Part shown: one piece after another, positions 1-31,321 of the stretch
Layout of the letters: each line of letters begins with the position of its first letter
How positions within the stretch are numbered: the first letter of the stretch is position 1
Origin: Clostridia bacterium
GTDB taxonomy: Bacteria > Bacillota > Clostridia > TANB77 > RGIG9151
Direction: 5' to 3'
DNA: 32,000 nucleotides
Assembly (NCBI GenBank): GCA_017934955.1
Contig: JAGBIO010000005.1
Coordinates: forward strand, 39,642 to 71,641
Program-made: the position numbers and the translations under genes
The notes under the pieces: generated by a model
Databases searched by the model: none
What the model saw: the letters and a program-made list of their open reading frames with translations, nothing else
Told to the model about the DNA's origin: nothing

Positions 1-360
1 AGAAATGAAGTAAGTTCGTTGTTGAAGGCGTCGTTTAAACCGGAATTTTTGAATCGGTTGGATGAAATTGTATTCTATAAACCGTTGATGAAGCAGGAAA
101 TCGGAAAGATTGTGGATTTGATGTTGAAGGATTTACAGAGACGGTTGGATTCGAAGCAGTTGAATCTTGTTGTGACGGATAAGGCGAAGGAATTTGTGAT
201 TGATAGCGGTTATGATCCGATCTACGGGGCAAGACCGTTGAAGAGATTTTTACAGCAGCAGGTGGAGACTTTGATTGCGAAGAAGATTATTGAGGGCAAT
301 TTGGATGTCGGAAGCGAGATTAAAGTGGATTATGATGGAGAGAAGCTGTTTATTGCTTAG
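1..360 (+). CDS. clpB: ClpB-type AAA+ disaggregase, C-terminal fragment (5' end lies outside the window)
   Basis: Frame 1 is open from base 1. FKPEFLNRLDEIVFYKPL and GYDPIYGARPLKRFLQQ are the sensor-2/C-terminal motifs of ClpB/Hsp104. Stop at 358-360. Confidence 0.8.
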   Translation, partial: RNEVSSLLKASFKPEFLNRLDEIVFYKPLMKQEIGKIVDLMLKDLQRRLDSKQLNLVVTDKAKEFVIDSGYDPIYGARPLKRFLQQQVETLIAKKIIEGNLDVGSEIKVDYDGEKLFIA

Positions 361-450
361 GACAGCATGAATGCTGTCCGTACAGAAAGATGAGATGATT
401 TGTGGACAGCATGAATGATGGTTTTTGTAGGGACAGCATTCATGCTGTCC
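360..450. repeat. REP-like hairpin cluster: full copy 360-379 (GGACAGCATGAATGCTGTCC), half copy 404-417, full copy 431-450 (loop TC, opposite polarity)
   Basis: Perfect 9+9 bp palindromes read directly. The first copy starts on the last base of the clpB stop codon. Confidence 0.9.
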
Positions 451-532
451 GTTGTATATTCTTAAATATTCAGATAATTTTCACATTTCTACAAATTAAC
501 ATCACATATTTTTGGTAAAATAATTATCGTAG

Positions 533-597
533 GGACACAATTCATTGTGTCCGAGAGTATAGACTGAATTAGGACACAATAAATTGTGTCCCTACAG
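533..597. repeat. Inverted doublet of the CACAAT stem subfamily (GGACACAATTCATTGTGTCC 533-552; GGACACAATAAATTGTGTCC 572-591, followed by CTACAG)
   Basis: Two perfect 20-bp palindromes flanked by CGTAGG...CCCTACAG, ending immediately upstream of the htrA RBS at 603-610. Confidence 0.9.
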
Positions 598-2540: not shown

Positions 2541-2546
2541 AAGAGT

Positions 2547-2749
2547 GGACAGCATGAATGCTGTCCGTACAGAAAAAGCAGAAATGATAAAATTGCACAA
2601 TGTGTAGGGACAGCATTTATGCTGTCCACAGAAAAAGCAGAAATGATAAAATTGCACAATGCGTAGGGACAGCATGAATGCTGTCCGTACAGAAAAAAGC
2701 AGAAATGATAAAAATTGTGCAATGCGTAGGGACAGCATTTATGCTGTCC
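2547..2749. repeat. Tandem array of 4 REP-like hairpins (cores 2547-2566, 2608-2627, 2667-2686, 2730-2749), period 59-63 bp, central dinucleotide alternating GA/TT/GA/TT
   Basis: Read directly. The inter-hairpin segments are near-identical (ACAGAAAAAGCAGAAATGATAAAATTGCACAATG[T/C]GTAGG), so the whole unit is repeated. Confidence 0.9.
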
Positions 2750-2847
2750 ATTAAATAGGCGTAGCGTTAAATTTATAGCAAATTTTTGAATTTTGCATAT
2801 TATAAAGCGGAGAATTTGTCAATACTATCATGGAGGTGATGTCATAA

Positions 2848-5274
2848 ATGTACAAATTTACCGAAAAAGCGGAAAAAGTGATAAAGCTATCGAAAGATGC
2901 GGCGGTTGCTTTGGGGCATAATTATGTGGGTACGGAGCATATTTTGTTGGCTTTGATGGAAGAGGGTAATGGTGTTGCTTGTAAGGTTTTGACTTTACAG
3001 GGACTTACAAAGGAGAATATAGCGGATAAAATTGAAGAGTTGATTGGACATGGCGTGGAAGAGGATGTGAAGATGCTTGGATTTACACCTCGTTCGAAGC
3101 GTGTGTTGGAAATTGCGTTTCATGAGGCACGTGGAAACGGGCAGGAGTTTATCGGAACGGAACATATTTTGTTGGCGATTATGAGGGAAAAAGACAGTAT
3201 TGCGGTGCGTGTTTTGGCGGATATGGGCGTTAATATGCAGTCGCTTTACGATGAAATATACAGAAGAGTATCGATTGAGTCGAAAAAGGCGGATTTGGAG
3301 CCGATTAAGAGAAATACGCGGAGCAATTTGACACCGACGTTGAATCAGTTTGGTCGGGACTTGACAGAACTTGCTGAGTTGGGAAAGATTGATCCGGTGA
3401 TTGGCAGAAGCGATGAAATTGAGCGTGTCATTCAGGTATTAAGTCGAAGAACGAAGAACAATCCTTGTTTGATTGGAGAGCCGGGTGTTGGAAAGACAGC
3501 GATTGCGGAAGGTTTAGCGCAAAAGATTGTGCAGGGAGATATTCCGGAGATTTTGAAGGATAAAAGAATTGTGACGTTGGATTTGTCTTCGGTGGTTGCG
3601 GGTGCGAAGTACCGAGGTGAGTTTGAAGAGCGAATCAAAAAGGCGTTAAATGAAGTCATAAAAGCCGGAAATGTTATTTTGTTTATTGATGAGTTGCATA
3701 CGATTGTGGGCGCAGGCGCTGCGGAAGGTGCGATTGATGCAGCGAATATTTTAAAACCGCTTTTGGCACGAGGCGAAATTCAGTTGGTTGGTGCGACGAC
3801 GTTGGATGAATATAAAAAGTATATTGAAAAGGATTCTGCGTTGGAGCGAAGATTTCAGCCGATTCAGGTGGATGAGCCGACTGAGGAGGATGCGATTCAG
3901 ATTTTAAGAGGGCTTCGGGATCGTTATGAGGCGCATCATAAGGTGAAGATTACCGATGAGGCAATTTTGTCGGCGGTGAAGTTGTCGAAGCGATATATTA
4001 GTGATCGTTGCTTGCCGGATAAGGCGATTGATTTGATGGATGAGGCGGCGTCGAAATTGCGTTTGTTGAGTTTTACCGAGCCGGCGAATATTAAAGAGAT
4101 TGAGGAAAAAATAAAGCGTTTCTCGGAGGAAAAAGAAGAAGCGATTAAGGTGCAGGATTTTGAGAGGGCGGCGGAAGTTCGAGATAAGGAACTGAAGCTG
4201 AAGACGCGTCTCGAGAATGCAAAGAAGGATTGGCAGAAGAAGAGTAAATTGACTGAGTCGGTTGTGGGAGAAGAACAGATTGCAGAGATTGTTTCGAAGT
4301 GGACGGGAATTCCTGTGACAAGGCTTGCGGAAGAGGAGACCGAGCGTTTAAAGAACATGGAGGAAACCTTGAAGAAACGAGTTGTCGGGCAGGATGAAGC
4401 GGTTATTTCGGTGTCTAAGGCGATTAAGAGAAGTCGTGTGGGGATTCAGGATCCTAAGCGTCCGATTGGTTCCTTTTTGTTCTTAGGACCGACGGGGGTT
4501 GGAAAAACCGAGTTGAGTAAGGCTTTGGCGGAAGTTTTGTTTGGCGATGAGAATGCGATGATTCGAATCGATATGTCGGAGTATATGGAGAAACATACCG
4601 TTTCTCGTTTGGTTGGTTCACCTCCGGGATATGTTGGTTACGAAGAGGGCGGTCAGCTTACCGATAAGATTCGTAGAAAGCCGTATTCGGTGTTGCTGTT
4701 TGACGAGATTGAAAAGGCGCATGAGGATGTGTTTAACATTCTTTTGCAGATTTTAGAGGATGGAAGATTGACCGATTCGCAGGGGAGAACGGTAAATTTC
4801 AATAATACGATTATTATTATGACGTCAAATGTGGGCGCTCGAACGATTTCGGATGGAAAGAAGTTGGGATTTGAGAAGGGCGAGAAGAAGGAAGAGAGTT
4901 ATCGGGATATTAAGAAAAACGTGATGGATGAGTTAAAGAGGACTTTCCGTCCGGAGTTTTTAAATCGTATTGATGATATTATTGTGTTCCATCAGTTGAA
5001 TGAAGATAATATTCGCAAAATTGTGGATATTATGGTGACGGAATTGGTAAAGCGTTTAGAAACGAAGGAAATCTTTATTGAAGTGGGAGATGACGTTCGA
5101 AACTTTATTGCGAAGAAGGGTTTTGATATTACCTACGGTGCAAGACCGCTACGAAGGGCGATTCAGAATGAGATTGAGGATATTGTGGCAGAGGGAATTT
5201 TGAATCGGGATATCAAGACCGGAAGGAAGGTTCGGTTGAAGGTTGTTGAGGATAAAGTGAAAGTAGAGAATTAA
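2848..5274 (+). CDS. clpC: ClpC-type AAA+ ATPase (Clp_N repeats, two AAA modules, UVR-like middle motif)
   Basis: N-terminal double Clp_N (GHNYVGTEHILLAL, EFIGTEHILLAI). Walker A GEPGVGKT and GPTGVGKT. UVR-like QDFERAAEVRDKE. 808 aa. Confidence 0.9.
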   Translation: MYKFTEKAEKVIKLSKDAAVALGHNYVGTEHILLALMEEGNGVACKVLTLQGLTKENIADKIEELIGHGVEEDVKMLGFTPRSKRVLEIAFHEARGNGQEFIGTEHILLAIMREKDSIAVRVLADMGVNMQSLYDEIYRRVSIESKKADLEPIKRNTRSNLTPTLNQFGRDLTELAELGKIDPVIGRSDEIERVIQVLSRRTKNNPCLIGEPGVGKTAIAEGLAQKIVQGDIPEILKDKRIVTLDLSSVVAGAKYRGEFEERIKKALNEVIKAGNVILFIDELHTIVGAGAAEGAIDAANILKPLLARGEIQLVGATTLDEYKKYIEKDSALERRFQPIQVDEPTEEDAIQILRGLRDRYEAHHKVKITDEAILSAVKLSKRYISDRCLPDKAIDLMDEAASKLRLLSFTEPANIKEIEEKIKRFSEEKEEAIKVQDFERAAEVRDKELKLKTRLENAKKDWQKKSKLTESVVGEEQIAEIVSKWTGIPVTRLAEEETERLKNMEETLKKRVVGQDEAVISVSKAIKRSRVGIQDPKRPIGSFLFLGPTGVGKTELSKALAEVLFGDENAMIRIDMSEYMEKHTVSRLVGSPPGYVGYEEGGQLTDKIRRKPYSVLLFDEIEKAHEDVFNILLQILEDGRLTDSQGRTVNFNNTIIIMTSNVGARTISDGKKLGFEKGEKKEESYRDIKKNVMDELKRTFRPEFLNRIDDIIVFHQLNEDNIRKIVDIMVTELVKRLETKEIFIEVGDDVRNFIAKKGFDITYGARPLRRAIQNEIEDIVAEGILNRDIKTGRKVRLKVVEDKVKVEN

Positions 5275-6498: not shown

Positions 6499-6939
6499 AG
6501 ATGTATTATTAGGAATAGTATCATTATGTACATAATTTCCTATTTACCACAAGCAATTAAATTAATTAAAACAAAAGAATCAAAAGATTTAAGCAAAACT
6601 GCTTAGATAATATGGGGTGTAAGCAGTTTTTCATATTCATTGTATGCATTTCTGTGTTCTGATGAATTTATGTTAAAATTTGAAACTACATTAGAATTTT
6701 CTGTTACTAATCAGACTTAAAATTATAAAAATGTTACGAACACTGTAGGGACAGCATTTATGCTGTCCACAGAAAAGGCGGAAAGCAGGACAGCATGAAT
6801 GCTGTCCCTACAATGGTTGTAGCATCATTATAAAAAGCTATAGTCTGACCTGTAACAATTTTCTTTTTGTTTACTAATACTATTATTGACGGTAAAATAT
6901 AGAAATAATAAAATAGAAGGTGATAAAAATGACAAATAA
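6499..6939 (+). pseudogene. SemiSWEET/PQ-loop transporter remnant: 5'-truncated, in-frame TAG at 6604-6606, interrupted by the MITE at 6703-6856
   Basis: Frame 1 reads ..IIMYIISYLPQAIKLIKTKESKDLSKTA*IIWGVSSFSYSLYAFL..FETTLEFS, which carries the PQ motif. After removing the MITE plus one TSD copy (162 bp, 54 codons) the frame continues FCLLILLLTVKYRNNK.., a plausible last TM helix with a basic tail. Confidence 0.6.
6703..6856. mobile_element. MITE copy A (154 bp): TIRs GTTACTAATCAGACT / AGTCTGACCTGTAAC, internal inverted doublet of CAGCAT-type hairpins (6749-6768, 6788-6807), 8-bp TSD AATTTTCT (6695-6702 and 6857-6864)
   Basis: TIRs, the perfect direct duplication and similarity to the second copy at 22354-22523 were all read directly. 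Confidence 0.8.
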
Positions 6940-7804
6940 CGATGAAAAGTTAACTAAAGTAGTAATAAACTGGTTCCCTGGACATATGGTGAAGGCGAAG
7001 AAGGAAATTAAGGATAACTTAAAATTGGTGGATACGGTTATTGAGATTATTGATGCGAGGATTCCGAAAAGCAGCAGAAATCCGGATTTTGATGAGTTGG
7101 TGGCGAACAAGCCTCGGATTATTGCGTTAAATAAGTTTGATTTGGCGGATGAAGCGGTAAATCGAGAGTGGATTTCTTTTTTTAAGAAAAACGGACAGGC
7201 TGCGGTGTTGATTAATTCGATAACCGGTGCCGGAATTAAAGAATTATTGGCTTGTGCTTATCGTTCGGTTTCCGAGAAGATGGAACGGAATGCGGAGCGT
7301 GGTCGTGTGGGAAGAAGTGTGCGCGCAGCAGTGATTGGAATTCCGAATGCCGGAAAATCTTCTTTTATCAATAAAGTGGCGAAGAGAACTGTGGCAAATG
7401 TGGGAAACAAGCCGGGTGTGACGAGAACAAAACAATGGATTCGAACGGATGCGGGCGTGGAGTTGATGGATACGCCGGGGATTCTTTGGCCGAAGTTTGA
7501 AAAAGAAGAAATCGGGTTGCATTTAGCGTTTACCGGTGCGATTCGTTCGGAAATTTTGGATAACGCGGAGATTGCGTTGAAGTTGATTGGAGACCTTCGA
7601 AAGTATTATGCGCAGGAGTTGTTTGGACGATATAAGATAGAGACGGCAGAGAGTGACACGGATTTGGAGATTATGGAGAAAATCGGGAAGCGGCGTGGTT
7701 GTATTGTTTCGGGCGGCGAAGTGGATTATGAAAAAACGGCGAACATTATTTTAGATGAATTTCGAAAGGGGACAATTGGAAGGATTAGTTTGGAGAGACC
7801 TTAG
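6929..7804 (+). CDS. rbgA: Ribosome biogenesis GTPase A (YlqF/RbgA, circularly permuted GTPase)
   Basis: INWFPGHM start motif. LNKFDL (G4) precedes GIPNAGKSS (G1) and DTPG (G3). The start was moved to ATG 6929, behind GAAGGTGA. Confidence 0.85.
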   Translation: MTNNDEKLTKVVINWFPGHMVKAKKEIKDNLKLVDTVIEIIDARIPKSSRNPDFDELVANKPRIIALNKFDLADEAVNREWISFFKKNGQAAVLINSITGAGIKELLACAYRSVSEKMERNAERGRVGRSVRAAVIGIPNAGKSSFINKVAKRTVANVGNKPGVTRTKQWIRTDAGVELMDTPGILWPKFEKEEIGLHLAFTGAIRSEILDNAEIALKLIGDLRKYYAQELFGRYKIETAESDTDLEIMEKIGKRRGCIVSGGEVDYEKTANIILDEFRKGTIGRISLERP

Positions 7805-7809
7805 AAAGA

Positions 7810-7882
7810 GGACACAATAAATTGTGTCCGTACGGAATGAGAAGAAAGGTAAAAAGATGTATGGACAGCATAAATGCTGTCC
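7810..7882. repeat. Direct tandem pair of hairpins of two different stem subfamilies (GGACACAATAAATTGTGTCC 7810-7829; GGACAGCATAAATGCTGTCC 7863-7882), each followed by GTACGGA[A/G]TGAGAAG[A/G]AAG
   Basis: Read directly. 53-bp period, conserved flank and compensatory stem difference. Confidence 0.9.
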
Positions 7883-9441: not shown

Positions 9442-9482
9442 TAGAAATGATTGAATTTAATGAAGACTCAAAGTGAGTGTAG

Positions 9483-9670
9483 GGACAGCATGAATGCTGT
9501 CCGTACAGTAAATTAAGAATTAAAGTGGGAATATGGACATCAAATTAAGAACTAAAGTGAGTGTAGGGACAGCATGAATGCTGTCCGTACAGTAAATTAA
9601 GAATTAAAGTGGGAATATGGATATCAAATTAAGAACTAAAGTGAGTGTAGGGACAGCATTTATGCTGTCC
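9483..9670. repeat. Tandem array of 3 hairpins (cores 9483-9502, 9567-9586, 9651-9670), exact 84-bp period
   Basis: The unit GTGTAGGGACAGCATGAATGCTGTCCGTACAGTAAATTAAGAATTAAAGTGGGAATATGGA[C/T]ATCAAATTAAGAACTAAAGTGA occurs 2.4 times. The last core has loop TT. Confidence 0.9.
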
Positions 9671-9713
9671 GCGAAAAGGCACAAAGTAAATTTTGTATTA
9701 AGGGGCGAGGAAT

Positions 9714-11041: not shown

Positions 11042-11506
11042 ATGAAATGTCCTTTTTGTTATGTGCCGGAGAGTAAGGTTATTGATTCGCGACCTTCGGA
11101 TAACGGCGCAAGTATTCGAAGAAGACGGGAATGTGTGAGTTGTGGCAGGAAGTTTACAACGTATGAGCGAGTGGAAGAGATTCCGATTATGGTAATTAAG
11201 AAAGATGGAAGTCGTCAGGCTTTTGATCGAATGAAGATTACAAACGGAATTATGCGGGCTTGCGAGAAGCGTCCTGTGACGATGGACCAGATTGAGGAGA
11301 AGGTAAATCAGGTTGAGGCGAAAGTGTATAATAAATTGAGTAAGGAAATTTCTACAACGGAAATTGGAGAATTTGTGATGGATGCGCTAAAGGAGCTTGA
11401 CGATGTGGCGTATGTTCGTTTTGCATCGGTTTACCGGCAGTTTAAAGATTTGAATTCTTTTTTGGAGGAACTGCATGGACTTTTAGAGAAAAATGAGAAA
11501 AAGTGA
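11042..11506 (+). CDS. nrdR: Transcriptional repressor NrdR (zinc ribbon plus ATP-cone)
   Basis: MKCPFC..VIDSR...[17 protein letters not shown] followed by an ATP-cone domain. Confidence 0.9.
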
Positions 11507-11509
11507 TTA

Positions 11510-11529
11510 GGACAGTATGAACGCTGTCT
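11510..11529. repeat. Degenerate hairpin copy (GGACAGTATGAACGCTGTCT followed by GTACACAG)
   Basis: Three mismatches to the family consensus, immediately after the nrdR stop codon. Confidence 0.6.
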
Positions 11530-13356: not shown

Positions 13357-13400
13357 GGAAGTAGTTTAAAGTCATAAGGGCTTTAGACTGCTTCCTTTTT
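13357..13400 (+). terminator. Strong intrinsic terminator, 26 nt upstream of the next start codon
   Basis: 15-bp continuous stem (GGAAGTAGTTTAAAG / CTTTAGACTGCTTCC, two G.U pairs), 9-nt loop, then TTTTTGTGTTTT. Confidence 0.75.
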
Positions 13401-13425
13401 GTGTTTTAAAGAAAGGGTGGATGAG

Positions 13426-15369
13426 ATGAAGAGAGGTTTGAAATTTAGTTTATTTCTGTTAATGATGGGGGTGATGTTGGGAATAGGCAGTGTTGCGGAG
13501 GCGGCAGTTCCGGCTTATAGTTATACAGGAACGTCGAGTACGTCAACGGATAGCAATTATTGGTATATTTACTTAAAATCTTCCGGAACGCTGAAATTTA
13601 CCAGTGAATCACCGAAAATTGATGCTTTCCTAGTAGGAGGAGGCGGTGGTGGTGCTCAATCCTGGTATGATAGTAACTATGGTCAAGGAGGCGGTGGCGG
13701 TGGCTATACCAAAACGGTAGACAATATTTCCTTAACAAGTGGAACCGGATATGCAATTACCATAGGCGCTGGAGGTGCTGGACTTTGCGATAGTGAAAGG
13801 TACGCTGGAACCGGAGGCACAACATCTGCATTTAACTATAGTGCAGCCGGAGGTGGAGGCGCAAAGAAGAGTGGTAGTGGTAACTCTTTGGGAGGAACGG
13901 GCGGTTCAAATGGTGGGACCCCCGGAAATGCAGGAAGTAATGGTGCATATGCATTTGGTGATAGTAGTTTAAGTCGTTATGGAGCTGGCGGCGGAGGCGG
14001 TGGTAATGCCGGAGCTGCCGGAGCTGCCGGAGGTGCTAACGGTGGAGGAACCGGAGGAAATGGATATTCAAATCCTGCTGGCCAAAATGGAACAGCGAAT
14101 ACCGGCGGAGGCGGAGGCGGTGCAGGCGGTAACGGCGGTTGGTCTTGTGAAGAGGCCGGCGGAACCGGAGGTAGCGGTATCGTTATCATTCGAGGGTGTT
14201 TAGCTCATAAAGGAGGAACGCATGCGAATGGAGGAAAGTGTACCACTTGTGGAGTTGTATACCAAACACACAGTCAATCAAGCACGGTATCAAGTTACAC
14301 CAAAACGAGCACGCAACATACACCGAATTACGCATGTAGCTACAGCGGATGTACGACGACATATGCGGGAACGGCGGCGAACCATAGCGGAGCGACGCAT
14401 AATAACGGAGGAAAGTGTACCGTGTGTGAGTATGTATACCAAACACACAGTCAATCAAGCACGGTATCAGGTTATACGACAACAAGCACGCAACATACAC
14501 CAAATTATGCATGTAGCTACAGCGGATGTACGACGACATATGCGGGAACGGCGGCGAACCATAGCGGAGCGACGCATAATAACGGAGGAAAGTGTACCGT
14601 GTGTGAGTATGTATATGAAACGCACAGTCAGTCGACGGCAATTGTAAGTTATACGCAAACAAGCACACAACATACGCCAATTTATGCGTGTACGTTAAAC
14701 GGATGCTCGGGAACATATGCCGGAACAACAGAACTCCACAGCGGAGGCGGAGAAAATGACGGAATGTGCGGGATTTGCGGAATGCAGTATCAAACGCATA
14801 GTCCTTCTACGAATATCGTAACTTATAAGCAAACAGAAACACAACATACACCAATTTATGAATGTAATGTAACGAATTGTACACAACTTTATTTAGGAAC
14901 AGCAGAAAATCATAGCGGAGCGACGCATAATAATGGGGGAAAATGTACCGTTTGCGGATATGTTTACGAAACCCATGGTCAATCTGAAACGGTTGTCTCC
15001 TATACGCAACAAGAAACAGGACATATTCCTGTGTATGGTTGTACCTATAGTGGATGTGCATCAACTTATACCGGAACATTACAACTCCATGACGGAACGA
15101 TAGAATTACATGTAGCAAACAGTTCTTGTGAATCGTGCGGTTGGGGAAGTGAAAATACGGGTGGAACGTATGTATTAACAATAAATTATAATGATACTGT
15201 CGTAACAAAAGACGTGGAATCGGGTAGAATTGTAACGTTAGGAATAGGAAGTCGTGTTGATGCGACATATACTGTAACTACCGGAAATGCTGTACTAAAA
15301 ATGTATGGAACTCGTCGGCAATTTGTGATGCCGGCAGAAAATGTTACGATTACAATCCAAGATATATAG
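13426..15369 (+). CDS. Secreted glycine-rich protein with 5.5 tandem 59-aa Cys/His modules and a C-terminal beta-rich domain
   Basis: RBS AAAGGGTGG. Signal peptide MKRGLKFSLFLLMMGVMLGIGSVAEA. GGGGGG runs ending in GSGIVIIRG. Repeats of H.G.TH.NGGKCT.C.YVY.THSQS...Y..T.TQHTP.Y.C...C...Y.GT. C-terminal F.MPAENVTITI resembles InlB-B-repeat-like domains. Confidence 0.8.
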   Translation: MKRGLKFSLFLLMMGVMLGIGSVAEAAVPAYSYTGTSSTSTDSNYWYIYLKSSGTLKFTSESPKIDAFLVGGGGGGAQSWYDSNYGQGGGGGGYTKTVDNISLTSGTGYAITIGAGGAGLCDSERYAGTGGTTSAFNYSAAGGGGAKKSGSGNSLGGTGGSNGGTPGNAGSNGAYAFGDSSLSRYGAGGGGGGNAGAAGAAGGANGGGTGGNGYSNPAGQNGTANTGGGGGGAGGNGGWSCEEAGGTGGSGIVIIRGCLAHKGGTHANGGKCTTCGVVYQTHSQSSTVSSYTKTSTQHTPNYACSYSGCTTTYAGTAANHSGATHNNGGKCTVCEYVYQTHSQSSTVSGYTTTSTQHTPNYACSYSGCTTTYAGTAANHSGATHNNGGKCTVCEYVYETHSQSTAIVSYTQTSTQHTPIYACTLNGCSGTYAGTTELHSGGGENDGMCGICGMQYQTHSPSTNIVTYKQTETQHTPIYECNVTNCTQLYLGTAENHSGATHNNGGKCTVCGYVYETHGQSETVVSYTQQETGHIPVYGCTYSGCASTYTGTLQLHDGTIELHVANSSCESCGWGSENTGGTYVLTINYNDTVVTKDVESGRIVTLGIGSRVDATYTVTTGNAVLKMYGTRRQFVMPAENVTITIQDI

Positions 15370-16938: not shown

Positions 16939-16998
16939 GGACAGCATGAATGCTGTCCACAGAATAGGCAGAAAAGCAGGACAGCATAAATGCTGTCC
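16939..16998. repeat. Direct doublet of hairpins (16939-16958 loop GA; 16979-16998 loop AA) with spacer ACAGAATAGGCAGAAAAGCA
   Basis: Read directly. Confidence 0.9.
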
Positions 16999-17083
16999 GT
17001 ACATCATTATAAGCAAATATGTCTGCCTTGTAATTTCTCGATGCAAAATTTTTGAAAAAATACTGTGCAAATCTCAAAAAATT

Positions 17084-19696: not shown

Positions 19697-19718
19697 TTTT
19701 GTTATATATTTGAAAGAC

Positions 19719-19802
19719 GGGACGTCGAGGACGCCGTCCCCTACGAAATAAAAGAGGGGATTATATTTGAAAAGCGGGACGTCGAGGACGCCGTCCCCTA
19801 CG
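19719..19802. repeat. Two tandem copies (57-bp period) of a GC-rich hairpin variant, GGGACGTCGAGGACGCCGTCCCCTACG
   Basis: Copies at 19719-19745 and 19776-19802, each preceded by ATATTTGAAA[G/A][A/G]C. The outer GGGAC...GTCCCCTAC matches the flanks of the main family. Confidence 0.8.
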
Positions 19803-22275: not shown

Positions 22276-22353
22276 CTATTTTGTGATAGGGTAAGAGGAA
22301 TGATGTTCTGAGAAGAATGATTTTAGAACATCATTTTTTCTGTTTAAATTTTG

Positions 22354-22523
22354 GTTACCAATCAGACTTAATAATTTTCTATATGGCCGAAATGTTCTGT
22401 ATTCCTTTGTAGGGACACAATTCATTGTGTCCTAATTCTACTGTCTGCCTATTCTGCGGACACAATAAATTGTGTCCCTACAGTATTTCTGGCTTCACTA
22501 TAAGTTTGAGTCTGAATTGTAAC
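22354..22523. mobile_element. MITE copy B (170 bp): TIRs GTTACCAATCAGACT / AGTCTGAATTGTAAC, internal inverted doublet of CACAAT-type hairpins (22413-22432, 22458-22477), 8-bp TSD AAATTTTG (22346-22353 and 22524-22531)
   Basis: TIRs, TSD and arm similarity to copy A were read directly. Confidence 0.8.
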
Positions 22524-22552
22524 AAATTTTGAAATTTTGTTGGAAAAATGTA

Positions 22553-22581
22553 TTGACTTTTTATGCGGATGGTGGTATTTT
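22553..22581 (+). promoter_or_regulatory. Sigma-A promoter of the hrcA operon (TTGACT-N17-TATTTT)
   Basis: Hexamers at 22553-22558 and 22576-22581, placed just upstream of CIRCE as in other hrcA operons. Confidence 0.55.
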
Positions 22582-22592
22582 ATATCTTGAAA

Positions 22593-22619
22593 TTAGCAGT
22601 CGGGTTTTGAGAGTGCTAA
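22593..22619 (+). promoter_or_regulatory. CIRCE operator (HrcA binding site)
   Basis: TTAGCAGTC-GGGTTTTGA-GAGTGCTAA against the consensus TTAGCACTC-N9-GAGTGCTAA, with one mismatch. Confidence 0.9.
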
Positions 22620-22638: not shown

Positions 22639-23325
22639 ATGATTCTTGATAATAGGAAAGAACGAATTTTGCAAGCAATTGTGGATTACTATGTAAATCG
22701 TGCAGAGCCTATTGCCTCGAAAATCATCGCAGATGTTTATGGATTGGATTTAAGTTCCGCGACGATTCGGAATGAGATGGCCGAAATGGAGGGAATGGGA
22801 TTAATTGAAAAGCCTCATACTTCTGCAGGAAGAATTCCGTCAGATTTGGGATATCGGTATTATGTGGATTCTTTGATGGAGGAACATGTGTCGGAGGAGG
22901 AGCAGGAGAATGTGAAGCGACTTTTGGAGGAGAGTCAGAAAGATATCCTTCAGAAGATTTCGATGGCGTTGTCCGGTGCGACACATTATACGACGATTGC
23001 ATTTGACGATGATGGAATTGTGTTATATGGTAGAAACAATGTGTTTGATTTTCCGGAATTTAACGATGTGGATAGTTTGCGGAAGTTTATGTATTTGTTG
23101 GAGGAGGAAGAGATGATAAAGGATTTCTTCCAAAAGATTCATAATTCCGATATTACGGTGACCATCGGAAAGGAAAATCAATTTGAACAAATGAGAGATT
23201 ACAGTTTAGTGACGTTTTCTTATCATGATTTAGGAGATATAGCGATAATCGGACCGAAACGAATGGATTACAGTAAGGTTATCGGGTATATAAAATATTT
23301 ACTGGAACAGGAAAGAGGAGGTTAA
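22639..23325 (+). CDS. hrcA: Heat-inducible repressor HrcA, unusually short (228 aa)
   Basis: N-terminal wHTH (R.ILQAIV..Y....EPI.S..I......LSSATIRNEMAE.E..GLIEKPHTSAGRIP). C-terminal IAIIGPKRMDYSKVI. The middle region is shorter than the roughly 340 aa I recall as typical. Confidence 0.85.
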   Translation: MILDNRKERILQAIVDYYVNRAEPIASKIIADVYGLDLSSATIRNEMAEMEGMGLIEKPHTSAGRIPSDLGYRYYVDSLMEEHVSEEEQENVKRLLEESQKDILQKISMALSGATHYTTIAFDDDGIVLYGRNNVFDFPEFNDVDSLRKFMYLLEEEEMIKDFFQKIHNSDITVTIGKENQFEQMRDYSLVTFSYHDLGDIAIIGPKRMDYSKVIGYIKYLLEQERGG

Positions 23326-23820: not shown

Positions 23821-23840
23821 AGTTGAGGCATGTTTGAGGT

Positions 23841-23992
23841 GGACACAATAAATTGTGTCCGTACAGAGGGATGTGCAAATAGGAAGTAGAGAGGCATGTT
23901 GGAGGATGGACACAATAATTTGTGTCCGTACAGAGGGATGTGCGATTAGGAAAGAGAGGCATGTTTGAGGGTGGACACAATAAATTGTGTCC
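23841..23992. repeat. Tandem array of 3 CACAAT-type hairpins (23841-23860, 23908-23927, 23973-23992), period 65-67 bp, between grpE and dnaK
   Basis: The unit GGACACAATAAATTGTGTCCGTACAGAGGGATGTGC[A/G]A[A/T]TAGGAA..AGAGGCATGTT.GAGG is repeated. The middle copy has a shifted centre (TAAT). Confidence 0.9.
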
Positions 23993-24033
23993 GTACAAAG
24001 GAATGTGCAAATAGGTAAGAGAGACATATTTGA

Positions 24034-31059: not shown

Positions 31060-31321
31060 GTTGTTTTTGTGGCGTATACTTTAATGCGGCGATTAAGTCT
31101 TTCCCGATAACTAAATGTTCGGTTAGTAGTTTTTGAATGAGATTTGCGACGATTTTTCCGTAATAGGTTTCAAAGATATCGACGATATTTTTGGGATTTT
31201 TTAATTGATTTTGAAATGTTACTGTTTTCAAAAAAGGAAAGAGAAACGAGAAAGAGAGAAAACTGGTGTATGGGAGTTACAGGTAAGTCTCAAATCTATA
31301 GAGAAGGCACAAACACTGTAG

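Follow-up and report, generated by a model that had tools for sequence, protein, structure and literature searches.

The window, a 32,000-nucleotide stretch of an uncultured ruminant-gut Clostridia genome, carries two related palindromic elements, copy A upstream of rbgA and copy B upstream of hrcA. Each consists of an outer shell of terminal inverted repeats (TIRs) and arms around a core of two hairpins, which are named below as the REPs to which we assign them.

6695–6702: left 8-bp direct repeat of copy A, AATTTTCT, a putative target-site duplication, identical to 6857–6864
6703–6856, + strand: copy A, 154 bp, in the order L-end TIR, arm, REP doublet core, R-arm, R-end TIR
6703–6717, + strand: left TIR of copy A, GTTACTAATCAGACT
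6745–6768, + strand: REP 1 of copy A, GTAG tag and hairpin GGACAGCAT-TT-ATGCTGTCC
6769–6787: core spacer of copy A, ACAGAAAAGGCGGAAAGCA; orientation relative to the R-end reversed in copies B, C and F
6788–6811, − strand: REP 2 of copy A, inverted, GGACAGCATGAATGCTGTCC then CTAC; GTAG faces outward, giving a head-to-head dimer
6842–6856, − strand: right TIR (R-end) of copy A, AGTCTGACCTGTAAC; also an inward promoter-like GTTACA-N18-TATAAT
6857–6864: right 8-bp direct repeat of copy A, AATTTTCT
22346–22353: left 8-bp direct repeat of copy B, AAATTTTG
22354–22523, + strand: copy B, 170 bp; shell as in copy A, ACAAT hairpin subfamily, core spacer inverted relative to copy A
22524–22531: right 8-bp direct repeat of copy B, AAATTTTG, with one more AAATTTTG directly behind it (22532–22539), the third in all

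The initial annotation had described copy A as having TIRs that match at 12 of 15 positions and a perfect 8-bp flanking duplication, and had reported a second element at 22354–22523 with the same TIRs, a different 8-bp repeat and a different hairpin subfamily. On re-reading, its coordinates and strings for both copies proved exact throughout. The copy A termini (GTTACTAATCAGACT versus GTTACAGGTCAGACT, the reverse complement of AGTCTGACCTGTAAC) agree at 12 of 15 positions between perfect 8-bp repeats, those of copy B agree at 13 of 15, the repeat of copy B is AAATTTTG, and the hairpins are GGACAGCAT..ATGCTGTCC in copy A and GGACACAAT..ATTGTGTCC in copy B. The two copies are 78% identical over aligned columns. 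The TIR pattern GTTACNNNTCAGACT occurs four times exactly and six times with at most two mismatches, compared with a mean of 1.56 in shuffled sequence and none of 100 shuffles reaching six. Both copies are shorter than about 300 bp and non-coding, with no ORF of 80 aa or more overlapping either, and each folds as DNA into a single end-to-end hairpin (−38.4 kcal/mol, z = −10.3 for copy A; −29.4 kcal/mol, z = −7.8 for copy B). No Rfam family was found anywhere in the window at gathering thresholds, and no called gene or ORF carries a Pfam transposase domain, in agreement with the annotation's statement that the window holds no transposase.

Six copies with a common terminus and two perfect 8-bp duplications

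We examined 62.6 kb of this one genome, a ruminant-gut Clostridia MAG, comprising the window, L011 (1–9383), 0.6 kb of L013 and L140 (20.6 kb), the last of these placed in the genome by the M23 peptidase neighbouring copy E, which shares 127.5-kb contigs with window genes. The family numbers six copies in this sequence: A and B are complete, E is two-ended, and C, D and F are partial, the two-ended copies measuring 135–170 bp.

16939–17034, + strand: copy D, partial; REP doublet, R-arm and a degenerate R-end ...TGTCTGCCTTGTAAT, no L-end
31276–~31375, − strand: copy C, partial; R-type end GTTACAGGTAAGTCT at 31276–31290, one intact REP, far side degenerate
L140 3683–~3830: copy F, partial
L140 10643–10777: copy E, 135 bp; both termini, a shortened L-arm, second hairpin degenerate

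When the six copies were aligned by their better-conserved end, they had in common the hairpin, CTAC, the arm and then TATAGTCTGAnnTGTAAC, with similarity ending exactly at ...TGTAAC. The sequences that follow the R-end differ in all six copies (AATTTTCT, AAATTTTG, TCCCATAC, TTCTCGAT, TCTTTTTT and CCCTCTTC); because similarity stops exactly at the terminus and the flanks are all different, the terminus is real and the flanks lie outside the repeat. These flanks also narrow the annotation's proposal of insertion into AT-rich targets, which does not hold generally, as the R-end flanks other than those of copies A and B read TTCTCGAT, CCCTCTTC, TCCCATAC and TCTTTTTT. AATTTTCT and AAATTTTG have AATTTT in common. 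Mean column identity across the six-copy alignment is 58%, which is the mark of diverged copies with no sign of a recent burst.

Between the two hairpins, copies A, D and E carry the 19–25-nt spacer in one orientation with respect to the R-end and copies B, C and F in the other, and the arm/REP junction (…TGTCCCTACA…) is identical across all copies. Recombination between the two inverted hairpins, flipping the core, would account for this most simply. No REP-less shell turned up anywhere in the 62.6 kb.

Copies A and B, two of the three two-ended copies, are each flanked by a perfect 8-bp repeat, and the two repeats differ in sequence. An 8-mer flank match is expected by chance at about 4 × 10^−5 from intergenic composition and at 5 × 10^−4 empirically (intergenic pairs 120–199 nt apart in this window), so that two perfect matches among three two-ended copies have p < ~10^−6 even on the inflated empirical background. 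The flanks of copy E, AAAAAAGA and CTTTTTCT, match at none of eight positions, and this copy has no duplication, which could reflect exchange of flanks by recombination between copies or a deletion alongside. Copy E is degenerate and lies between convergent genes. That the repeats of copies A and B are intact despite 78% identity between the two elements suggests that several diverged source copies were active, as opposed to one recent burst.

The annotation had called copy A a bona fide MITE. Much of this description stands: the element is small, non-coding and dispersed, it has TIRs, ends that are sharp in six copies and, in copies A and B, different perfect 8-bp duplications. Against it speaks copy E, two-ended and lacking a duplication, which is the kind of copy that the annotation had named as evidence against itself. 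The 62.6 kb, a collection of one genome per species, viral contigs and plasmids yielded no autonomous IS that has these TIRs. A scan of the one-genome-per-species collection for TIR plus hairpin returned only one chance match in Shimia and L004, which is copy E of this same genome on a contig broken at the repeat; scans of viral contigs returned two chance matches in coding sequence and nothing else, and BLAST of copy A against plasmids returned nothing relevant.

The hairpins as REPs, and their spread outside the shell

The hairpin unit consists of GTAG followed at 0 nt by GGACAGCAT-TT/TC-ATGCTGTCC, or by GGACACAAT..ATTGTGTCC in the second subfamily. The 9-bp stem is paired throughout, has GGAC at its base and is closed by a loop of 2 nt. 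REPs have been defined by a GTAG or GTGG tag 0–2 nt 5′ of a hairpin, a paired stem of 7–20 bp, a loop of 2–5 nt and at least three G/C among the first four stem bases (PMC6006769), and the unit conforms to every one of these rules. It also fits the GTAG superfamily of PMC3733652, including its head-to-head dimers, singletons and clusters. We counted 46 hairpins in 62.6 kb (about 0.7 per kb), of which 11 are inside shells and 35 (76%) outside; the latter comprise singletons abutting or overlapping stop codons (for example at 360, 2547, 7810 and 11510), a free doublet and tandem arrays.

529–595: free REP doublet
2546–2757, 9459–9694, 23821–24017, L011 6912–7124 and L140 5398–5576: tandem REP arrays

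We considered two other identities for these hairpins and rejected both. CRISPR-like arrays were discarded because spacers within an array are 88–95% identical to each other. As for intrinsic terminators, no site was called at copy A or B, and singleton REPs read directly show the hairpin and then GTACAGAAA, with no T run.

The hairpin class extends far beyond this genome. A metagenome scan for GTAGGGACAnnATTnATnnTGTCC returned at least 120 loci from human gut, soils and sediments at 25–69% G+C, placing the class in more than 100 unrelated metagenome contigs, and none of the matches listed carries the GTTAC..TCAGACT TIR. Both free stem positions are Watson-Crick paired in 137 of the 149 distinct matches listed, with ten dinucleotide types represented, compared with about nine paired matches expected by chance. 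On one human-gut contig (L025), 35 bp separate a 114-bp doublet of the class from a 181-aa Y1_Tnp protein (PF01797, E = 5 × 10^−10), whose best NCBIfam match is 'REP-associated tyrosine transposase' (NF047646) at 67 bits, below the curated cut-off of 80, with IS200 at 37 bits; by these matches the protein is a RAYT-like tyrosine transposase. The annotation had taken the MITE to link the abundant hairpins to a mechanism that generates 8-bp duplications. That link is not supported, given that 35 of 46 hairpins are outside shells, that the REP rules apply to the hairpins, that the class is widespread without the TIR and that it has a RAYT-like neighbour in one contig. The hairpins are a separate and far more abundant repeat class, REPs, so the 154-bp element does not explain their spread.

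A REP core raises the question of whether the whole 154-bp palindrome could be a long-armed REPIN moved by the genome's RAYT, its TIRs being the outer palindrome and its 8-bp repeats a product of A/T-tract target preference or local tandem repeats. The core is indeed a canonical GTAG-outward REP doublet, the entire element folds into one hairpin, and a RAYT-like gene adjoins the REP class elsewhere; copy E without a duplication, the tandemly repeated target of copy B and the AATTTT of both duplicated sequences point the same way. Set against this, two perfect and different 8-bp repeats abut the termini exactly (p < ~10^−6) and elements of the IS200/IS605 type, moved by Y1 enzymes, are not known to leave a duplication. 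The same genome holds free REP doublets and singletons without a shell, and the termini lie 27–45 nt from the hairpin foot, farther than any Y1 cleavage site known to us. We consider this reading rather unlikely. As a plain REPIN, the 154-bp element as a whole was rejected for its 15-nt TIRs 27–40 nt outside the REPs and the perfect 8-bp duplications of copies A and B; the core doublet alone still qualifies.

Relatives, insertion sites and promoter spacing

All contigs of this species, which come from ruminant-gut metagenomes, are 99.9–100% identical to the window with no indel difference, and therefore provide no pair of filled and empty sites. No empty site for copy A or B was found among these contigs or in relatives at 86–93% amino-acid identity. 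A sister species (86% RbgA and 93% HrcA identity, 35% G+C) lacks the element upstream of both rbgA and hrcA. Its hrcA promoter, CIRCE operator and ribosome-binding site align to within about 20 bp of the right repeat of copy B, but homology further upstream is lost because the neighbouring genes differ, so that no clean empty site can be aligned; removing copy B and one repeat in silico gave no convincing alignment to relatives. In a relative with 97% RbgA identity, the same hairpin follows rbgA on a 953-bp contig that ends short of the copy A site.

The sister species also differs in its hairpins. In about 25 kb of its sequence we found no GGACA..TGTCC hairpin and one hairpin doublet, with stems GTTAGCAT..ATGCTGAC and GATTAGCAT..ATGCTAATC, located at the copy D site with conserved flanks. 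The copy D site would either have been occupied before the species split and then remodelled, or have been struck twice. At about 0.7 hairpins per kb here versus one doublet in about 25 kb of the sister species, the REP expansion is large and lineage-specific in a Firmicute.

Unexpectedly, several of the R-ends stand in a regular relation to promoters, for which the following features are relevant.

6886–6914, + strand: promoter-like site upstream of rbgA, TTGACG-17-TAAAAT; −35 hexamer 29 nt past the R-end of copy A (6856)
22553–22581, + strand: hrcA promoter, TTGACT-17-TATTTT with TG extension; −35 hexamer 29 nt past the R-end of copy B (22523)
22593–22619: CIRCE operator, kept with the hrcA promoter in the sister species without the element
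L140, −35 at 3653, − strand: promoter faced by the R-end of copy F, TTTACA-17-TAAAAT with TG; R-end at L140 3683

A promoter scan placed 29 nt between the R-end and an outward −35 hexamer (offset 30) in copies A, B and F, with the R-end facing the promoter, and a re-implemented scan gave the same three matches at offset 30. By eye, and below the scan threshold, copy D has the same spacing to TGTGCA-17-TGaTACAAT (an extended −10) upstream of pyruvate kinase. Copies C and E have no such promoter, their R-ends facing gene 3′ ends in convergent arrangement. For three of six ends to coincide at one offset within 100 nt, the probability is about 7 × 10^−4, a rough and post hoc figure that assumes promoter-like sites in AT-rich spacer DNA at about 0.007 per base and strand. 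Since the sister species has the hrcA promoter but not the element, the promoter is host DNA and not cargo. When the human-gut shell family described below was tested for promoter spacing, it showed no relation. Read inward, the R-end itself has the form GTTACA-N17/18-TATAAT; the ends of IS that carry the transposase promoter often read likewise inward.

These spacings bear on a reading in which the element is a cis-acting module fixed upstream of sigma-A promoters, for example a palindrome that binds a protein or a unit providing a divergent promoter or small RNA, that spread by duplication or gene conversion and not by mobile insertion. The 29-nt distance of R-end to −35 in copies A, B and F (scan) and D (by eye), always facing the promoter, speaks for such a module, as do the promoter-like inward R-end and the occupied copy D site in the sister species. 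It is opposed by the sister species, which keeps the hrcA promoter without the element, by copies C and E, which lie between convergent gene ends with no promoter, by the lack of any Rfam match, and by the perfect duplications of copies A and B, which require an insertion event. We regard this reading as very unlikely. There is a small chance that the family measures its integration site from sigma-A promoters, with RNA polymerase or the geometry of promoter DNA as possible guides, so that a bacterial transposon with a REPIN core would choose its targets by promoter tethering; the original 8-bp target would then have lain at about −65 to −58, on the upstream edge of the UP-element region. Should the 29-nt spacing hold genome-wide, promoter-directed insertion would become testable in bacteria.

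A two-layer repeat and its parallels

We favor, with a probability of roughly 0.55, the reading that the segment is a two-layer non-autonomous repeat, in which a TIR shell would have been inserted by a putative trans-acting DDE-type transposase with 8-bp staggered cuts and the core is REPIN-like. The inserted part would be the shell, made up of 15-nt TIRs (GTTACnnnTCAGACT) and arms of 22–45 nt, with cutting by the putative transposase supplied in trans and subsequent repair leaving AATTTTCT on both sides. The core is a head-to-head GTAG REP doublet of a class that would be much older than the shell and is wider and far commoner, and the REPs would form a separate layer, probably handled by a RAYT (HUH/Y1). 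Because the REP class appears older and wider than the shell and is RAYT-associated elsewhere, the shell would carry a REPIN or have been colonised by one and would not be the vehicle of the hairpins. The anatomy of shell and core, the sharp termini of six copies, the two perfect 8-bp duplications and the REP nature and independent distribution of the hairpins are observed here, whereas we infer that the element transposed, which kind of enzyme moved it and in what sequence shell and core were joined. Several observations count against the two-layer reading, namely copy E without a duplication, the copy D site occupied in the sister species, the divergence of the copies, the lack of an autonomous IS or of a filled and empty site pair in the sequences searched, and the constant 29-nt promoter distance, the last of which is not predicted by a simple randomly inserting MITE.

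A similar arrangement occurs in human-gut contigs, where the same REP class is present as 110–114-bp doublets, about half of which lie inside a different, unrelated shell with TIRs (AC)GTGAGTTCGGYATAA...TTATRCCGAACTCAC(GT), often with approximate direct repeats of 7–11 bp alongside. Shells without REPs (L089 and L051) and doublets without shells are also present in these contigs. REP dimers thus recur within longer TIR elements, an arrangement that has been little studied. A further case comes from Anabaena variabilis, in which GTAG REP dimers occur as insertions in long palindromes, termed 'target palindromes', and no copy of the palindrome lacking a REP was seen (Di Nocera et al. 2013, PMC3733652).

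Such cases lend some weight to a different history, in which the shell is an older palindrome or an immobile old MITE that serves as a preferred landing site, with REP doublets inserted centrally later and possibly several times independently. REP dimers inside 'target palindromes' (Di Nocera et al., PMC3733652) provide a precedent, the human-gut family has both REP-less shells (L089, L051) and shell-less doublets, and in the present family the hairpin subfamily varies between copies and three of six have the spacer turned the other way with respect to the R-end. Later insertion is harder to reconcile with the absence of any REP-less shell in 62.6 kb of this genome and with the same arm/REP junction in all copies, for which one ancestral composite with a flipping core is the better fit. 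We think this history unlikely.

Two further element types were compared with the family and rejected. Elements derived from IS200/IS605 have subterminal direct hairpins, no TIRs and no duplication, and insert 3′ of a fixed tetra- or pentanucleotide; here the hairpins are inverted, TIRs and 8-bp duplications are present and the left flanks vary between copies. Integron attC sites follow the consensus RYYYAAC ... GTTRRRY, inverse core then core, whereas GTTAC...GTAAC runs in the reverse order and CTGTAAC departs from RYYYAAC.

The shell resembles bacterial MITEs (Correia/NEMIS, RUP, ERIC, Nezha and Chunjie) in size, absence of coding, TIRs, direct repeats, stable fold and intergenic location, and in the occurrence of truncated copies without TIRs or direct repeats alongside full copies; Chunjie, for comparison, is 178–235 bp long with 21-bp TIRs and 9-bp direct repeats. 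It differs from them in that no parent IS or empty site was found in the sets searched, in having one two-ended copy without a duplication, and in an interior that is a REP doublet and not IS-derived.

Like the GTAG-15 dimers of A. variabilis, the element has a GTAG REP dimer at the center of a longer conserved inverted repeat, and REP-free palindromes were found neither there nor in the 62.6 kb of this genome. The sequences are unrelated, and the A. variabilis palindromes are described in passing, with termini and duplications unreported (PMC3733652), whereas the family described here has defined ends and 8-bp repeats.

The core class shares with the REP/REPIN-RAYT systems of E. coli (BIMEs) and Pseudomonas (REPINs) a GTAG directly 5′ of a paired, G/C-based 9-bp stem with a short loop, an extragenic and abundant distribution (about 0.7 per kb) as singletons, GTAG-outward dimers and clusters, compensatory stem variation, and the proximity of a RAYT-like Y1 transposase elsewhere (L025). 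Unlike those systems, copies A and B add arms, 15-nt TIRs and perfect 8-bp duplications, and the host is an uncultured member of the Clostridia. No mention of target-site duplications was found in the REP/REPIN literature searched.

REPs and REPINs, which HUH/Y1 enzymes move with no duplication, and MITEs, which are moved by DDE enzymes and bear TIRs and duplications, are treated as separate classes of small bacterial repeats. In this genome of an uncultured gut Clostridia member, a canonical GTAG REP doublet lies within a shell whose TIRs are defined and whose 8-bp duplications are perfect, and the same REP class occurs in an unrelated human-gut shell. The MITE features are ordinary, as are the REP features; their combination in Clostridia, with its human-gut parallel, is less so, and the possible placement measured from a promoter is likewise unusual. 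If the composite truly transposes, then either REPINs can ride on another mobilisation system or they land preferentially in palindromic MITEs.

REP hairpins outside the shells

Tandem arrays of the REP hairpin were found in the window and on two other contigs of the same genome, L011 and L140:

Window 2546-2757, REP array, period 59-63 nt
Window 9459-9694, REP array, period 84 nt
Window 23821-24017, REP array, period 65-67 nt
L011 6912-7124, REP array, period 48-49 nt
L140 5398-5576, REP array, period 53 nt

The segments between hairpins are 88-95% identical inside one array, so the arrays are local duplications of a hairpin and its flank, and we rejected CRISPR-like arrays on the same identity. 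Singleton REPs begin 0-6 nt downstream of a stop codon (window 358-379, 7802-7829 and 11504-11529; L011 3027-3048), and some overlap it, in which case the TAG of ...TAGGACAGC appears to be used as the stop codon. One doublet lies free of any shell (window 529-595), with a spacer, GAGAGTATAGACTGAATTA, that matches the R-end, the conserved terminus of the shelled element (TATAGTCTGAATTG), at 12/14 positions. A second repeat type, a G+C-rich palindrome ending CCCTAC (GGGACGTCGAGGACGCCGTCCCCTAC), occurs as two copies 57 nt apart at window 19705-19802, and one related to it, at L140 3842-3868, splits the arm of element copy F.

Related doublets in a sister species and in human-gut contigs

At the intergenic site of partial copy D (window 16939-17034), the sister species, whose HrcA is 93% identical, also carries a hairpin doublet (L007 7620-7700) between conserved flanks. 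Its stems, GTTAGCAT..ATGCTGAC and GATTAGCAT..ATGCTAATC, differ from those of copy D and have nothing but the apex AGCAT..ATGCT in common with them. The two doublets are either an orthologous element that underwent concerted change or the product of the same site being hit twice.

The same REP class (GGACATAAT..ATTATGTCC) is also present as 110-114-bp doublets in human-gut contigs of about 55% G+C, among metagenome loci L016-L135. Examples are:

L107 10542-10729, REP doublet locus
L091 8624-8810, REP doublet locus
L025 1845-2535, REP doublet locus

About half of these doublets are enclosed by another type of shell, whose TIR is GTGAGTTCGGYATAA and whose approximate direct repeats are 7-11 bp long. 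A RAYT-like gene adjoins one of the doublets. Some hairpins have a loop expanded by 19 nt (L023, L031, L074).

Neighbouring genes and host

Between a beta-CASP RNase gene and a flagellin gene, the window encodes a 656-aa glycine-rich protein (Pfam Gly_rich_2; 13399-15369) with 177-nt tandem repeats, a gene that the sister species lacks at that position. A CIRCE operator, TTAGCAGTC-N9-GAGTGCTAA (22593-22619), precedes hrcA (22639-23325), whose product is unusually short at 228 aa, as in relatives (224-235 aa). The species' GTDB representative is titled 'Spirochaetales bacterium RGIG8597', and NCBI names the same proteins 'Clostridia bacterium' (L004 / L140); SpoIID and a germination protease (Peptidase_A25) encoded at that locus fit a spore-forming Firmicute. 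The RGIG8597 assembly breaks inside the repeat.

The R-end and host promoters

In all four copies listed here the R-end faces a promoter:

Copy A, window, R-end 6856, -35 at 6886
Copy B, window, R-end 22523, -35 at 22553
Copy D, window, R-end 17034, -35 at 17064
Copy F, L140, R-end 3683, -35 at 3653

In copies A, B and F the R-end is followed, exactly 29 nt downstream, by the -35 hexamer of a tool-called host promoter that reads outward, and we found identical spacing by eye in copy D, where the promoter has an extended -10 (rough post hoc probability of the spacing, ~7e-4). The R-end itself contains an inward-facing, promoter-like GTTACA-N17/18-TATAAT (window 6827-6856, 17006-17034 and 22497-22525), a motif predicted to direct transcription that would cross the REP doublet, and one that resembles the transposase promoters of IS ends.
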